From Mobula hypostoma (lineage: Eukaryota), in NCBI RefSeq assembly GCF_963921235.1, contig NC_086097.1:139688001-139752000 (forward strand): a stretch of 64,000 nucleotides of DNA, read 5' to 3'. Each line of letters opens with the position of its first letter. Within the stretch, counting starts at the first letter, position 1. A model generated the notes under the pieces. It worked only from the letters and a program-made list of their open reading frames with translations, was not told where the DNA came from and did no database searches. The translations under genes were made by a program, and so were the position numbers. Below are positions 11,260-34,840 of the stretch, one piece after another.

Positions 11260-14200
11260 TGGGTAAAATGAGGAGATAATAGAGAGGAACTATTGGCAAG
11301 TAGTCACACCGGGGCCTTGAGAGACAGATAAGTGGGTAACAGTCAGGAGAGGGAAGGGCAAAAGTCGGATACTAGAGAGTACCTGTAGCTATTTCCCCCC
11401 CCCTTAACAATAAGTACTCCTGTTTGAATACTGTTGGGTGGGGGGGGGGGAACGGCTTACCTGGAGGGTGCAACAGTGGCCATGCATCTGGCACAGAGTC
11501 TGGCTCTGTGGCTCAGAAGGGTAGGGAAAGGAAGAGGATGGCAGCAGTGATAGAGGACTCTATAGTTAGGGGGTCAGACAGGCGATTCTGTGGACGCATG
11601 AAAGAAATGCGGATGTAAGTTTCCCTCCCAGGTGCCAGGATGTTTCTGATCGCGTCCACGACATCCTGAAGTGGGAAGGTGAACAGCCAGAGGTCGTGAT
11701 ACGTATTGGTACCAGCAACATTGGTAGGAAAAGGGAGGAGGTCCTGAAAACAGACTACAGGGAGTTAGGAAGTTAGGAAGGAAGTTGAGAAGCAGGACCT
11801 CAAAGGTAGTAAAATCAGGATTACTGCTTGTGTCACGTGACAGTGAGTGTAGGAATAGAGTGAGGTGGAGGATAAATGCGTGGCTGAGGAATTGGAGCAG
11901 GGGGCAGGGATTCAGATTTCTGTACCATTGGGACCTCTTTTGGGGCAGGAGTGACCTGTATAAAAAGGATGGGTTGCAATAGAGTCCAAGGGGGACCAAT
12001 ATCCTAGCAGGGAGGTTTGCTAAGGCTATTGGGGAGAGTTTAAACTAGAATTGCTGGGGTGGGTGGGAACTGAACTGAAGAGATGGAGGAAGGGGCAGTT
12101 GGCTCACAAATCAAGAAAGCTTGTAGACAGTGTGAGAGGGAGGATAGGCAGGTTATAGAAAAGGGATGCACTCAGACTGATGGTTTGAGATGTGTCTATT
12201 TTAATGCAAGGAGTGTCATGAACAAAGTGGATGAGTTTAGAGCATGGATCAGTACTTGGAGCTATGATGTTGTGGCCATTACAGAGACTTGGGTGGCTCA
12301 AGGGCAGGAATGGCTACTTCAAGTGCCAGGCTTCAGATGTTTCAGAAAGCACAGGGAGGGAGGCAAAAGAGGTGGGGACGTGGCACTGCTGATCAGAGGT
12401 AGTGTCACGCTGCAGAAAAGGTTGAAGTCATGTTTTTTTATAGAGGAGCAAATAGGGAGACAGATTCTAGAAAGATACAGTAACAACAGGGTTGTTGTGG
12501 GAGATTTTAATTTCCCCAATATTGGCATATGGCATGTCTTGGGCGTCTGAAACCTGGCGGAGCCCATCCCCCTCCAGATTTTTTTTTTACAAGGTCGAGT
12601 TGTTAGCTCGACACTCAACCCAGGCACGGATGGAGAGCGTGCAAGGGAGCCGGCTGGATTTGAACTCGGGACCTCTCGCCCCAAAGTCCAGCGCTGATGC
12701 CACTATGCCACCAGCCGGTACACACAGTATGTAGATAAGCCTATAAGAGGAGTTGCTGTACTTGATCTGTTATTGGGAAATGAGCCCAGTCAGGTGTCAG
12801 GTCTCTTAGTGGGAGAGCATTTTGGAGATAGTGATCACAATTCTATCTCCTTTACCATAGCATTGGAGAGGGATAGGAACAGACAAGTTAGAGAAGCATT
12901 TAACTGGAGTATGGGTAAATATGAAGCTATCAGGCAGGAACTTGGAAGCATAAAATGGGAACAGATGTCCTCAGAGAAATGTACGGCAAAATGTGGCAAA
13001 TGTTCATGGGATATTTGCATGGCATTCTGCATAGGTACGTTCCAATGAGACAGGGAAGGAATAATAGGGTACAGGAACTATGGTGTACAAAGGCTGGTGA
13101 AAATCTAGTTAAGAAGAAAAGAAAAGCTTGCTAAAGGTTCAAAAAACTAAGTAATGACAGAGACCTAGAAGATTATAAGGCTAACAGGAAGGAGCTTAAG
13201 AATGAAATTAGAGCCAGAGGGGGCCATGAGAAGGCCTTGGCGAGCAGGATTAAGGAAAACCAAGGCATTCTACAAGTACGTGAAGAACAAGAGGATAAGA
13301 CATGTGAAAATGGGACCAGTCAGGTGTGACTGTGGAAAAGTGTGTATGGAACTGGAGGAGATAGCAGAGGTACTTAATGAATATTTTGCTTCAGTATTCA
13401 CTACGGAAAAGGATCTTGGTGACTGTAAGGATGACTTACAGCGGACTGAAAAGCTTGAGCATTTTGACATTAAGAAAGAGGATGTGCTGAAGGTTTTAGA
13501 AAGCATCAAGTTGGATAAGTCACTGGGACTGGATGAGATATACCCCAGGTTACTGTGGGAGGTGAGGGAGGAGATTGCTGAGCCTCTGGCGATGATCTTT
13601 GCATTATCAATGGAGACAGTAGAGGTTCCGGAGGATTGGAGGGTTGCGGATGTTGTTCCTTTATTCAAGAAACGGAGTAGAGATAGCCCAGGAAACTATA
13701 GACCAGTGAATCTTACTAGAGAAGGTCCTGAGAAGCGGGATATATGAACATTTGGAGAGGCATAATATGATTAGGAATAGTCATCATGGCTTTGTCAAAG
13801 GCAGGTCGTGCCTTACGAGCCTGATTGAATTTTTTGAGGATGTGACTAAACACATTGATGAAAGTACAGCAGTAGATGCAGTGTATATGGATTTCAGCAA
13901 GGCATTTTATAAGGTACCCCATGCAAGACTTATTGAGAAAGTAAGGAGGCATGGGATCCAAGGGGAGCTTGCTTTGTGGATCCAAAATTAACTTGCTCAG
14001 AGAAGGCAAAGAGTGGTTGTAGACAGGTCATATTCTGCATGGAATGGTTGTAGATGGGTCATATTCTGCATGGAGGTTGATGACCAGTGGTGTGCCTTAG
14101 GGATCTGTTCTGGGACCCCTACTCTTTGTGATTTCTATAAATGACTTGGATGAGGAAGTGGAGGGATGTATTAGTAAATTTGCTGATGACACAAAGGTTG

Positions 14201-24759: not shown

Positions 24760-27700
24760 CTCGCGACAGTGAGAGTAGGAATGCGATGAGGTGGAAGATA
24801 AATGCGTGGCTGAGGGATTGGAGCAGGGGGCAGGGATTCAAGTTTTTGGATCATTGGGACCTCTTTTGGCGCAGGTGTGACCTGTACAAAAAGGACGGGT
24901 TACACTTAAATCCTCGGGGGACCAATATCCTGGCAGGGAGATTAGCGGGGGCTACTGAGGTGACTTTAAACTAGAATGGAGGGGGGGTGGGAATCAAATT
25001 AAAGCGGCTAGGTGTGAGGAGGTTAGTTCACAACAGAGGGATGGGAACCAGTGCAGAGAGACAGAGGGGTGTAAAGTGAGCGTAGAAGCAAAAAGTACAA
25101 AGGGGAAAAGTAAAAGTGGCAGGCCGACAAATCCAGGGCAAGCATTAAAAAGGGCTAAGAGAGTTGTAAAAGAGTGCCTGAAGGCTTTATGTGTCAATGC
25201 AAGGAGCATTCGTAATAAGGTGGATGAATTGAAAGTGCAGATTGTTATTAATGATTATGATATAGTTGGGATCACAGAGACATGGCTCCAGGGTGACCAG
25301 GGATGGGAGCTCAACGTTCAGGGATATTCAATATTCAGGAGGGATAGACACGAAGGAAGGGGAGGTGGGGTGGCGTTGCTGGTTAAAAAAGAGATTAACG
25401 CAATAGAAAGGAAGGACATAAGCCGGGAAGATGTGGAATCGATATGGGTAGAGCTGCGTAACACTAAGGGGCAGAAGACGCTGGTGGGAGTTGTGTACAG
25501 GCCACCTAACAGTAGTAGTGAGGTCGGAGATGGTATTAAACAGGAAATTAGAAATGTGTGCAATAAAGGAACAGCAGTTATAATGGGTGACTTCAATCTA
25601 CATGTAGACTGGGTGAACCAAATTGGTAAAGGTGCTGAGGAAGAGGATTTCTTGGAATGTATGCGGGATGGTTTTTTGAACCAACATGTCGAGGAACCGA
25701 CTAGAGAGCAGGCTATTCTGGACTGGGTTTTGAGCAATGAGGAAGGGTTAATTAGCGATCTTGTCGTGAGAGGCCCCTTGGGTAAGAGTGACCATAATAT
25801 GGTGGAATTCTTCATTAACATGGAGAGTGACGTAGTTAATTCAGAAACAAAGGTTCTGAACTTAAAGAGGGGTAACTTTGAAGGTATGAGACATGAATTA
25901 GCTAAGATAGACTGGCAAATGACACTTCAAGGATTGACGGTGGATATGCAATGGCAGGCATTTAAAGGTTGCATGGATGAACTACAACAATTGTTCATCC
26001 CAGTTTGGCAAAAGAATAAATCAAGGAAGGTAGTGCACCCGTGGCTGACAAGAGAAATTAGGGATAGTATCAATTCCAAAGAAGTAGCATACAAATTAGC
26101 CAGAGAAAGTGGCTCACCTGAGGACTGGGAGAAATTCAGAGTTCAGCAGAGGAGGACAAAGGGCTTAATTAGGAAGGGGAAAAAAGATTATGAGAGAAAA
26201 CTGGCAGAGAACATAAAAACGGACTGTAAAAGCTTTTATAGATATGTAAAAAGGAAAAGACTGATAAAGACAAATGTAGGTCCCCTGCAAACAGAAACAG
26301 GTGAATTGATTATGGGGAGCAAGGACATGGCAGACCAATTGAATAATTACTTTGGTTCTGTCTTCACTAAGGAGGACATAAATAATCTTCCAGAAATAGT
26401 AAGGGACAGAGGGTCCAGTGAGATGGAGGAACTGAGCGAAATACATGTTAGTAGGGAAGTGGTGTTAGGTAAATTGAAGGGATTGAAGGCAGATAAATCC
26501 CCAGGGCCAGATGGTCTGCATCCCAGAGTGCTTAAGGAAGTGGCCCAAGAAATAGTGGATGCATTAGTGATAATTTTTCAAAACTCGTTAGATTCTGGAC
26601 TAGTTCCTGAGGATTGGAGGGTGGCTAATGTAACCCCACTTTTTAAAAAAGGAGGGAGAGAGAAACCGGGGAATTATAGGCCGGTTAGCCTAACGTCGGT
26701 GGTGGGGAAACTGCTGGAGTCAGTTATCAAGGATGTGATAACAGCACATTTGGAAAGCGGTGAAATGATCGGACAAAGTCAGCATGGATTTGTGAAAGGA
26801 AAATCATGTCTGACGAATCTCATAGAATTTTTTGAGGATGTAACTAGTAGAGTGGATAGGGGAGAACCAGTGGATGTGGTATATTTGGATTTTCAAAAGG
26901 CTTTTGACAAGGTCCCACATAGGAGATTAGTGTGCAAACTTAAAGCACACGGTATTGGGGGTAAGGTATTGGTGTGGGTGGAGAATTGGTTAGCAGACAG
27001 GAAGCAAAGAGTGGGAATAAACGGGACCTTTTCAGAATGGCAGGCGGTGACTAGTGGGGTACCGCAAGGCTCAGTGCTGGGACCCCAGTTGTTTACAATA
27101 TATATTAATGACTTGGATGAGGGAATTAAATGCAGCATCTCCAAGTTTGCGGATGACACGAAGCTGGGTGGCAGTGTTAGCAGTGAGGAGGATGCAGGGT
27201 GACTTGGATAGGTTGGGTGAGTGGGCAAACTCATGGCAGATGCAATTTAATGTGGATAAATGTGAAGTTATCCACTTTGGTGGCAAAAATAGGAAAACAG
27301 ATTATTATCTGAATGGTGGCCGATTAGGAAAAGGGGAGGTGCAACGAGACCTGGGTGTCATTATACACCAGTCATTGAAAGTGGGCATGCAGGTACAGCA
27401 GGCGGTGAAAAAGGCGAACGGTATGCTGGCATTTATAGCGAGAGGATTCGAGTACAGGAGCAGGGAGGTACTACTGCAGTTGTACAAGGCCTTGGTGAGA
27501 CCACACCTGGAGTATTGTGTGCAGTTTTGGTCCCCTAATCTGAGGAAAGACATCTTTGCCATAGAGGGAGTACAAAGAAGGTTCACCAGATTGATTCCTG
27601 GGATGGCAGGTCTTTCATATGAAGAAAGACTGGATGAACTGGGCTTGTACTCGTTGGAATTTAGAAGATTGAGGGGGGATCTGATTGAAACGTATAAGAT

Positions 27701-28066
27701 CCTAAAGGGATTGGACAGGCTAGATGCAGGAAGATTGTTCCCGATGTTGGGGAGGTCTAGAACGAGGGGTCACAGTTTGAGGATAGAGGGGAAGCCTTTT
27801 AGGACCGAGGTTAGGAAAAACTTCTTCACACAGAGAGTGGTGAATCTGTGGAATTCTCTGCCACAGCAAACTGTTGAGGCCAGTTCATTAGCTATGTTTA
27901 AAAGGAAGTTAGATATGGCCCTTGTGGCTACAGGGGTCAGGGGGTATGGAGGGAAGGCTGGGTTCTGAGTTGGATGATCAGCCATGATCATAATAAATGG
28001 CGGTGCAGGCTCGAAGGGCCGAATGGCCTACTCCTGCACCTATTTTCTATGTTTCTATGTTTCTAT
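24760..28066 (+). mobile_element. Young 5'-truncated CR1 LINE (ORF1 C-terminus plus near-intact ORF2) nested in an older CR1
   Basis: ORF1 esterase tail ends TAG at 24974. ORF2 carries APE endonuclease and RT motifs. Tail (TTTCTATG)x~3 at 28044-28066. The older CR1 resumes on both sides. Confidence 0.95.
24959..27968 (+). pseudogene. CR1 ORF2 (APE endonuclease plus reverse transcriptase) with a single frameshift near 27195
   Basis: Frame open from 24959 to 27202 ([54 protein letters not shown]). It continues in another frame to 27968 (MQGDLDRL...RPHLEY...FFTQRVVNLWNSLP). Confidence 0.92.
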
Positions 28067-31861: not shown

Positions 31862-34840
31862 ATTGTAGGTAGAATTCCAAGTGTGGTTTCACCAGAAACT
31901 TGTAAAACTGCAACATAATGTCCTAACTCCTATCTCAATGCCCTAACTGATGAAAGTCAGGATGTTTAAATGTCTTTTACACCACCCCATTTATATCTGA
32001 TGGCACTTTTAACAAACTATGCACTTGTACTCCTTTTTCCCTCTGTTTCATTATACTGGCAGGTACCCTACCGTTCATAGTATAAATCCTAGGATGGATT
32101 GATTTTCCAAAATGCATCACCACATACTTATCTGTATTGAAATCCATTTGCCATTCCTTGGCCCAGTTCAACTGATCAAGATCCCTCTGTAATCTACAAT
32201 AACCTTCACTGTCAATAACACCTAATTTTGTGTCATCCACAAACATACTGATCAAACCTTGTATACTTGCATCCAAATCATTTATAGATAATGATTAACA
32301 AAGGTCCCAACGCTGACCCCTCTGGTACACCACTAGTCACTGGCCTCCTTTCTCAGAAACAGCCTTCAGCTGCTACCCTCTGCTTCCTACCTCTGAGCCA
32401 ATTTTGAACGCAGCTAATTCGTTCTCCCTGATTCTATGGAACATTCTTCCAGACTAGCCTACTGTTTAGGGCTTTGATGTAGGCATTGCTGAAGTCCAAA
32501 TAGACAAGATCCATGGCCCTTTCCTCGTCTACACTTTTTGTTACTCTTCCAAAAAAAAACTAAAAGGTTCATCAAGCATGGCTTTTCACGCACAACTATG
32601 CTGACTCCTCTTACTCTAACTCTGTCTATCCAAATGCTGGTAGATCCTATCTCTCATAATTGCCTGCAGTAACTTCCCCACTACTGGTGTCATGCTGACT
32701 GGCCTGTAGTTACCCGGTTTGTCCTTGCTATCCTTCTTAATAACATTAGCTACATTCCAGTCTTTAGAAGCTTCACCAGTATTTAATGATAAAGCAACTA
32801 TTTCTGCAAGGACCTTCATAATTTCTCCAGCCTTTCACAAATTCCAAGGATACACTTGATCAAGCCACTTAATATGACATAAGGCTGCAAATTCCTCCTT
32901 TCTGTTAATAGAAATGTCCTCTAAAGCCTCACCTGTTTCCCTTATGTCTTGAGCAACCATGATGTTTTCTTCAGTAAATACCAAGGATAAATACTCAATA
33001 AATACCCTACCAATTTCTCGGCAGCCCTGCTGATCTCTAAGGGGACCTACTCACTCCCTGGCCACCTTTTTTCTCTTAATATAGCTATAGACCCTCTAGG
33101 AATTTTCCTTAACCCTACCTGCCAGATCCATCCTGATTTCCCTCCTAAGAGTATTCTTAATCTTTTTATAGTCATCAAGGGATTCAGTCATCCCTGACCT
33201 CCTAAACCTAATGTACACTTGTTTACTTTATCTTGACCAGAACTTCAGTATCTATCGTCAGCCAAGATTACCTAAACAGGCCAGATTCACCCTTCATCCT
33301 AACAGACACTTGCTGCTACTGCACTGATATCACAATGTTAAAATCCTCTCACTTGCTATTTGTTCCTTTCCCTACAAACAGGCTCACCCAATCGACTTCT
33401 ATTAGATACTCAAACAAGAGAAAATCTGCAGATGCCAGAAGTCCGAGCAACACACACAATATGCTGGAGGAACTCAGCAGGCCAGCAGCATCTATGGGGA
33501 AAAAAGTGCAGTCAATGTTTCAGGCCGAAACACTGCGGCAGGTCTGGAGAAAAAAAAGCTGAGGAGTATATTTGAAAGGTGGGGGAAAGGGAGAGAGAAA
33601 CACCAGATGATAGGTGAAACTTGGAGGGGGAGGGATGAAGCAAAGAGCTGGGAAGTTGATTGGTGAAAGAGATAGAAGGCCATGGAAGAAAGTAAAAAGG
33701 AGGAGGGGAAGGGGAGAGGAGGAGGAGGACCAGGGAGAGGTGATGGGTGGGCAAGGAAGTAAAGTGAGAGAGGGACAAGGTAATGGGAAATGGTGAAGGG
33801 TGGAGGGGAGGCATTACTGGAAGTTTGATAAATTCATGTTCATGCCATTAGGTTGGAGGCTAGTCAAACAGAATATAAGATGTTGTTCCTCCAACCTAAG
33901 CGTTACCTTAACCTGACAGCAGAGGAGGTCATGGATGGACATATTGGAATGGGAAGTGGAATTAAAATGGGGGGCTACGGGGAGATTCTACTTGTTCTGG
34001 CGGGCGGAGCATAGATGCTTGGCGAAGCGGTCTCTCAATCTACATCAGGTCTCCGCTTGCAAGGATAAGTGCCAGGAGGGAGATCAGTGGAAATTAGATT
34101 CTACGTAATTTCCTCAAACTACCCCTGCCCTAACCTGTGTACATTGCCATCATTATCTTGGTCACTAAAGCCAAAATGCTCCCTCCCCTGATTAACCTGT
34201 TAATTGCCCTGCTTCGTTCCCTACGGGAAGGTCAACTGTCACACTCTCCTGAGTAGTGGAGAACTTTTCAGGACACATTCCACAAATTCCACCCTGTCCA
34301 GGCCCTTAACACTGCACAGTCCAGTCAAGACGAAGGAAATTAAAATTTCCCACCATTACAAGCCTACTATTCTAACAATTACGAGCAATTTCTCCACACA
34401 CCTGCTCCTCAAGATTCTGCTGACTATTGCAGTTTCTAGAATGGTTGTTGTTTGGCGTCCATCTGTCTTGAAGGACAATGGGTGATGATCGTCATCATCA
34501 CAAGCCTGGGCGGAAGGTATGGAGATCCCGAGATGCCCAGTCATCAAGATCCGCTCTTTCTCCCCACCTTTATTGTGCCCTGCCTATCCTGATTACTAAA
34601 CTTTCTCTCGCTAGCTACTGCTTCATCCCACGACTTGCTCCTGGTCAGAGTCACACCTCACCCTGCCAATCGAGATTAACCCTTTTGTATTGCATTAGTA
34701 AAATTTCCTGCAGGAATATTTTGTCCCTCTCTGGTTCAGATGCAACCTGCCCCTCTTGCACATTTCACCTCTAGCCCAGAAAAGATCGCAATGGCCCAAG
34801 AACCTGAAACCTCCCCCGTTCTGAACCCTCACCACCATCA
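31862..34840 (-). mobile_element. Old degenerate CR1 LINE (interrupted by a Penelope fragment)
   Basis: Remnants [26 protein letters not shown] and the ORF1-like FRFLGHCDLFW..GRLHLN. Confidence 0.75.
33411..34092 (-). mobile_element. Penelope-like element 3' fragment with decayed hammerhead (33510-33545)
   Basis: Homologous to 60461-61539 (LRLEEQHLIF-type segment and pseudo-LTR). Flanking ATTAGAT direct repeat at 33401 and 34093. Confidence 0.75.

Follow-up and report, generated by a model that had tools for sequence, protein, structure and literature searches.

In most vertebrates, CR1 dominates among retrotransposons. The junction between its two ORFs, examined here in a copy from the devil ray Mobula hypostoma, bears on the open question of how the ORF2 of LINEs is translated. 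In the review passages covered, ORF2 translation is ascribed to reinitiation, an IRES, or 2A skipping, not to frameshifting. The window analyzed is a stretch of 64,000 nucleotides (contig NC_086097.1, 139,688,001–139,752,000), and its numbering is used unless a locus is named. An initial annotation had inferred that this element produces an ORF1(esterase)–endonuclease–RT fusion by −1 programmed ribosomal frameshifting (PRF).

The ORF1–ORF2 junction of the CR1 copy

A CR1 LINE copy of a young family lies on the plus strand at 24762–28066, within older LINE debris, and its 5′ truncation point is inside ORF1. By BLAST, it is 99.6% identical to an intact copy of the family (L222), with 3 mismatches and one 11-nt deletion. 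What remains of ORF1 (24762–24974, plus strand, as are all junction features below) is the final 70 codons and the stop, comprising the end of an SGNH esterase with its DGLHL motif. The ORF2 frame (24959–27202) encodes an APE endonuclease and most of the RT (PF03372, PF14529, and PF00078). It ends early because of the deletion, which is in the RT part near 27188–27198, and the C-terminal remainder past the deletion is carried by another frame (27051–27968). As read from the sequence, a 3′ UTR and a short-repeat tail without poly-A follow (27969–28066), with the same end in loci L221, L222, and L226.

A junction search of the 3.5-Gb genome gave 1384 candidates; 40 of them were scored, and 30 loci of this family were retrieved. 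Intact copies have an ORF1 of 311 aa, an SGNH esterase in copy L002 (PF13472, E = 3.2e-16), and a −1 frame that is open over 1004 codons with the endonuclease and RT. The element shows the canonical CR1 traits, namely an SGNH esterase ORF1, an APE and RT ORF2, a short-repeat tail without poly-A, and 5′-truncated copies. By domains and 3′ tail, it fits the esterase-type canonical CR1 of a vertebrate survey, as described in the portions covered of the survey and of the report on the ZfL2-1 esterase structure (PMC13343379 and PMC3905857). The closest named ORF1 protein (99%) is from M. hypostoma; none of the relatives of ORF1, which bear shark, coelacanth, frog, turtle, squamate, and bird names, is labeled CR1. 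A further ORF1 protein, 60% identical to that of the window, carries the database label Pseudomonas aeruginosa SGNH hydrolase (P0021) and probably stems from host DNA in a bacterial assembly. The full-length copy L002 has a tandemly duplicated unit of ~190 nt at its 5′ end, upstream of ORF1 (L002:2690–2990, minus strand). A 221-nt deletion of the ORF2 linker without GT-AG ends was seen in contigs of a related organism (L002:1384–1606; runs X5 and X8), probably representing a deleted genomic subfamily.

ORF1 ends with ACT TTA AAC TAG, and the heptamer T_TTA_AAC (24965–24971) is in the X_XXY_YYZ phase, with the TAG stop (24972–24974) adjoining its 3′ end. This stop is TAA or TGA in some other families and always reads as Leu in the −1 frame. 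Six nucleotides 5′ of the heptamer, a TGA (24956–24958) shuts the −1 frame, so that ORF2 cannot be fed from an upstream start. The heptamer, the ORF1 stop, and this TGA are identical in all 30 retrieved loci. From 24959, the −1 frame of the window copy is open over 747 codons, through the heptamer and a linker (24971–25195) that leads from the slip site to the NARS motif of the endonuclease. The linker is variable and contains no AUG in this family. The heptamer, the TGA, and the opening of the −1 frame lie where the initial annotation had placed them, as does the first in-frame ATG at 25583, inside the endonuclease. The GTG at 25076 is likewise present, and the ATG at 24976 belongs to another frame, in which it opens 8 codons only. 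Of the 13 other ATGs between 24900 and 25582, none is in frame or opens more than 17 codons. The first Met of the −1 frame comes 206 codons into it in intact copies. In one such copy, the ORF1 frame runs 341 codons from stop to stop, and this is its sole canonical heptamer in phase. An in-phase heptamer arose from three random codons of the ORF1 frame in 0.12% of trials (~1 in 900).

Three other CR1 copies were noticed in the window. Two are older copies of other families, one with the exact heptamer at 12039 in the same junction (12039–12070, plus strand) and one with a one-letter variant (~18117–18090, minus strand). A further copy near 34673 (minus strand) is too decayed for the junction to be recognizable.

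Conservation of the heptamer across CR1 families

The 151 junction candidates comprised those from family searches and from 10-kb stretches taken at 60 evenly spaced places, together with the window and 45 metagenome loci. The DGLHL motif rather than the heptamer served as the anchor, and nine junctions were left out for a low motif score. The first in-frame stop was 24–33 codons past DGLHL in 115 junctions, and TTTAAAC directly preceded it in 108 of them; among the other 27 anchored junctions, 24 had the heptamer or a one-letter variant. In the unbiased subset (random stretches and window, n = 16), the heptamer was exact in 10, changed at one position in four, and decayed in two.

The 115 junctions were grouped into 21 families. 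Setting aside two without the Leu-Asn end (an L2-like element and a decayed copy) left 19, each represented by a real copy (nine from this genome and 10 from host contigs in metagenomes). Pairwise identity among the representatives had a median of 54% and a maximum of 78%. The Leu codon was TTA and the Asn codon AAC in 19/19 families, against 3.1 and 6.4 expected, respectively, from ORF1 codon use. The codon before TTA ended in T in 18/19 families (7.1 expected), while encoding eight amino acids. The single exception is G_UUA_AAC, and a first-position variant of this type is listed for equine arteritis virus in the sections covered of a frameshifting review (PMC5009743).

As the 19 families share ancestry, P values overstate their independence, and internal synonymous-site controls were therefore used. 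The invariant G, L, H, and D codons of the DGLHL region, 14–26 codons upstream, are scrambled at their synonymous sites. Among 178 ORF1 columns other than Met and Trp (15 families; median conservation of the third position, 0.53), TTA and AAC were the only ones with a fully invariant third position. The synonymous-site conservation that the initial annotation had put forward as a check thus held over deeply diverged CR1 families. For the 10 non-ray representatives, the nearest ORF1 proteins were from hummingbird in five cases and from reptiles in one; four were unplaced at 35–45%. At the protein level, 84 of 120 ORF1 homologues had a Leu-Asn C terminus, including proteins with shark, coelacanth, frog, turtle, squamate, and bird names; for the frog, turtle, squamate, and coelacanth elements, the shared feature is this protein end. 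Codon −3 was K, E, Q, M, or W in only 2/78 homologues, a weak test because positions −6, −7, −9, and −13 to −15 are similarly depleted. No relatives were found in the viral and prokaryote sequence collections. Judged from these alignments, the recoding-type signal in this known LINE family is real and deeply conserved.

Frame and start codon of ORF2

The start of the endonuclease was detectable in 117 of 136 junctions and lay in the −1 frame in 98 of the 117 (68/87 when the family of the window was left out). The copies with another frame are old ones with indels. In intact copies, ORF2 was in the −1 frame as anticipated, and the opposite case did not arise. No stop intervened between the heptamer and the endonuclease in 84 of the 98 in-frame copies, the linker length ranged from 39 to 110 codons, and the −1 frame was closed 6 or 15 nt upstream of the heptamer in 73/98. 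The linkers had 0 stops in the −1 frame versus 60 and 93 in the other frames over 970 codons, which is no independent test because the copies had been selected for an in-frame endonuclease.

The absence of an AUG upstream of the endonuclease, which the initial annotation had pointed out, held for the intact copies of the window's family but not elsewhere: an AUG was absent in 9/17 linker types and present at scattered positions in 8/17. It was within five codons of the slip site in four of the 17, once as an overlapping TAATG. The fifth −1 codon was ATG, TTG, ACG, or GTG in 9/19 families, being ATG in three bird-like elements; it is TGG in the window's family. On a tree of the 17 linker types (two rows with long branches), the AUG state changed at least four times. 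The AUG therefore comes and goes while the heptamer stays, and some families with an AUG could use both frameshifting and reinitiation. One ray junction family (G000, L206–L220) combines the slippery heptamer with an overlapping stop–start, where the ATG after TAA is in the ORF2 frame; it offers a natural test case for frameshifting versus reinitiation.

No full-length natural in-frame ORF1–ORF2 fusion was found among five longer homologues, which are gene models; this is a weak result. In two stingray gene models (P0036 and P0121), ORF1 runs straight into the ORF2 frame at the junction; each apparently reflects an individual copy in which one base has changed. The heptamer is lacking from L2-like elements whose ORF1 is an esterase (L155:1594–2241 and L143 near 1933). 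In L155, one decayed copy, the endonuclease continues in the same frame directly past a TGA then CTG. A TGA followed by CTG is a readthrough-prone context, and readthrough of this type could be a second route to an ORF1–ORF2 fusion in the sister clade.

The downstream G element

The initial annotation had described a G-rich tract shortly after the heptamer and expected a stimulator 5–9 nt downstream. Five Gs at 24982–24986 are conserved, following a 10-nt spacer, and a second GGG is at 24989–24991; together they form a candidate unstructured stimulator (24982–24991). The two preceding letters of the described tract (24980–24981) are private to the window copy, since 29/30 family loci read TT where it has AG. 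The expected spacing was not borne out: the conserved element is this unstructured G5, which spans +11 to +15 past the heptamer in 16/19 families (background, 0.0017 per position). The sixth −1 codon has G as its last base in 19/19 families, spread over seven different codons (10.5 expected); the same holds for the seventh codon in 18/19 (5.6 expected) and the ninth in 15/15 (4.4 expected). Because the G excess is at third positions, G5 is a nucleotide-level signal.

Searches for RNA structure gave no common solution. Fold z-scores for a local hairpin or pseudoknot ranged from −2.0 to +1.7, no family being better than −2.0, and RNAalifold on 14 families returned 0 consensus pairs at the junction. 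Three-tier quadruplexes were found in 0/19 families; two-tier ones were enriched (8/19 versus 13/143 background windows) but not universal. As to a long-range partner of the G motif, the top duplexes differ among the loci (18 of the 20 long loci have a junction). A recurrent match ~420 nt upstream corresponds to CLPG codons, whose variation shows no covariation (CTC in 11/15). In the text covered of a study of synthetic quadruplexes (PMC3919603), stimulation of U_UUA_AAC was best at 6–8 nt and required three tiers, and a bare heptamer shifted poorly (0.4% in a G4-disrupted control). There is no structured 3′ stimulator 5–9 nt downstream, and the junction therefore does not belong to the classical structure-stimulated class of frameshift sites. 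It does have a short unstructured motif at a fixed distance of 10–11 nt from the heptamer, as in the arterivirus type, and G5 is a candidate protein-bound stimulator site.

Proposed mechanism and alternative explanations

Here, we propose that CR1 ORF2 is made by −1 programmed frameshifting as an ORF1(esterase)–endonuclease–RT fusion, with a probability of roughly 0.8. An in-phase X_XXY_YYZ heptamer, an open downstream ORF in the −1 frame, and conservation of the heptamer beyond the need of the protein characterize a frameshift cassette, and all three are observed at the junction. Together with the absence of a usable AUG in the window's family, they support the fusion that had been inferred initially. 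According to the review sections covered (PMC5009743), few heptamers make mammalian ribosomes shift as readily as U_UUA_AAC. Most ribosomes would halt at the ORF1 stop and release ORF1p. A minority, with the Leu and Asn tRNAs on UUA AAC, would slip to UUU AAA, avoid the adjoining stop, and continue from the Leu codon at 24971. The predicted product in the window's family is an ORF1–linker–endonuclease–RT protein of 1313 aa. The chances are about even that the shift is promoted by a pause from the adjacent stop plus a factor on the unstructured G5, in an arterivirus-like manner, rather than by a pseudoknot. The factor may be either ORF1p of the element itself or a host protein that binds G tracts. 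More tentatively, and with somewhat less than even odds, CR1 may have been gag-pol-like since before the shark/bird split, a U_UUA_AAC shift driven by a G5-bound protein and not by RNA structure giving a 1300-aa fusion.

The main rival to frameshifting is termination–reinitiation, whereby ORF2 would be made separately from an AUG or non-AUG codon just past the ORF1 stop and the motif would position the post-termination ribosome. It is the mechanism reviewed for SART1 (UAAUG) and L1, where it is possibly AUG-independent (parts of PMC3894237, PMC2881922, and PMC5009743). The overlapping stop–start of the ray family, the ATG of the bird-like elements, and the AUG or near-cognate codons at the fifth −1 position speak for it. 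Reinitiation, however, gives no reason for the synonymous sites of the heptamer to be fixed or for the −1 relation of the frames to be invariant. The window's family, with its TGG and first in-frame AUG 206 codons on, has no AUG overlapping or adjoining the ORF1 stop, and the AUG state changes on the tree while the heptamer does not. We consider reinitiation unlikely.

The motif might instead be kept for another RNA or DNA job, such as packaging, ORF1p binding, or termination efficiency, with ORF2 starting at a near-cognate codon (GTG 25076) or an IRES. An unstructured G5 could serve protein binding for any purpose, and IRES-type initiation has been raised for non-LTR ORF2 in the portion covered of a review. 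This explanation appears very improbable: the GTG has no counterpart among linkers of varying length and sequence, most in-frame copies have no −1 stop between the heptamer and the endonuclease, and precisely the slippery phase would have to arise by chance at the ~1 in 900 given above. It is scarcely credible that splicing or a slipping polymerase corrects the frame in the RNA at this junction. In favor of it, most families have an AG in the stop codon, and runs of G are able to enhance splicing; against this, the stop is TAA or TGA in 6/19 families and a pyrimidine tract is absent at the junction. Neither an indel at the heptamer nor a GT-AG joint was seen among the matches listed for contigs of four runs, which is weak evidence because the RNA status of these contigs is a guess and contigs drop rare forms; strand and expression are not shown by them.

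Comparison with known systems

Returning to −1 frameshifting, the CR1 junction can be compared with viral and LTR −1 PRF (coronavirus U_UUA_AAC, retroviral gag-pol, and PEG10), as described in the sections covered of PMC5009743. The heptamer and phase are the same, and a structural protein upstream is likewise followed by enzymes in the −1 frame. The differences are that CR1 is a non-LTR LINE, has no pseudoknot or hairpin 5–9 nt downstream, and meets the zero-frame stop at once. In the PRRSV arterivirus, an unstructured CCCANCUCC ~11 nt 3′ of the shift site is bound by nsp1-beta and PCBP (same sections of PMC5009743), and the CR1 G5 begins at +11. The likeness is in spacing only, as the CR1 motif is G-rich, not C-rich, and its binder is hypothetical. 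SART1 and L1, as far as the sources covered describe them, resemble CR1 in having a bicistronic non-LTR RNA with ORF2 dependent on ORF1 translation; their reinitiation, unlike the reading proposed here, gives free ORF2p and needs no slippery site. A SART1-type stop–start occurs in only 1/17 CR1 linker types. Partial precedents come from non-LTR-type elements of clades unrelated to CR1, again from sources covered in part. For Penelope-like elements, a figure legend notes a frameshift and pseudoknot after ORF1; for Dictyostelium TRE5-A, overlapping ORFs are given, with neither heptamer conservation nor a fusion; and in HeT-A, the frameshift is within gag (PMC5009743).

The CR1 survey treats ORF1 and ORF2 as separate proteins in the text covered, unlike the fusion proposed here, and its main text contains no match for frameshift, overlap, slippery, start codon, or translation (PMC13343379). 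A word search of PMC11303007 gave 0 matches for frameshift, and CR1 is not mentioned in 300,000 of the 449,034 characters of the frameshifting review (PMC5009743). Further literature was drawn on in part (PMC11835228, PMC1925062, PMC8557442, PMC3159450, PMC5006619, and PMC5633606). No proposal of a CR1 frameshift was found in the literature searched, whose coverage did not extend to older CR1 papers (1990s chicken and turtle; Kojima 2005). The 1990s chicken and turtle papers reportedly describe closely spaced or overlapping ORFs, and a passing proposal of a frameshift in them is possible.

The frameshift mechanism itself is known; its use by CR1, suggested by the junction sequences, would be new and is unproven. 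The signal at the junction occupies under 30 nt, and an unstructured G5 at a fixed distance would be a stimulator type without description for cellular or transposon genes in the literature examined. If a G5-bound protein drives the shift, this would be a protein-stimulated frameshift outside viruses. If CR1 ORF2 is indeed made by frameshifting, annotations that start ORF2 at an internal AUG are wrong. The CR1 RT would then be joined, in a set proportion, to an esterase that multimerises and binds membranes, much as Pol is attached to Gag, and the picture of the CR1 particle would change.
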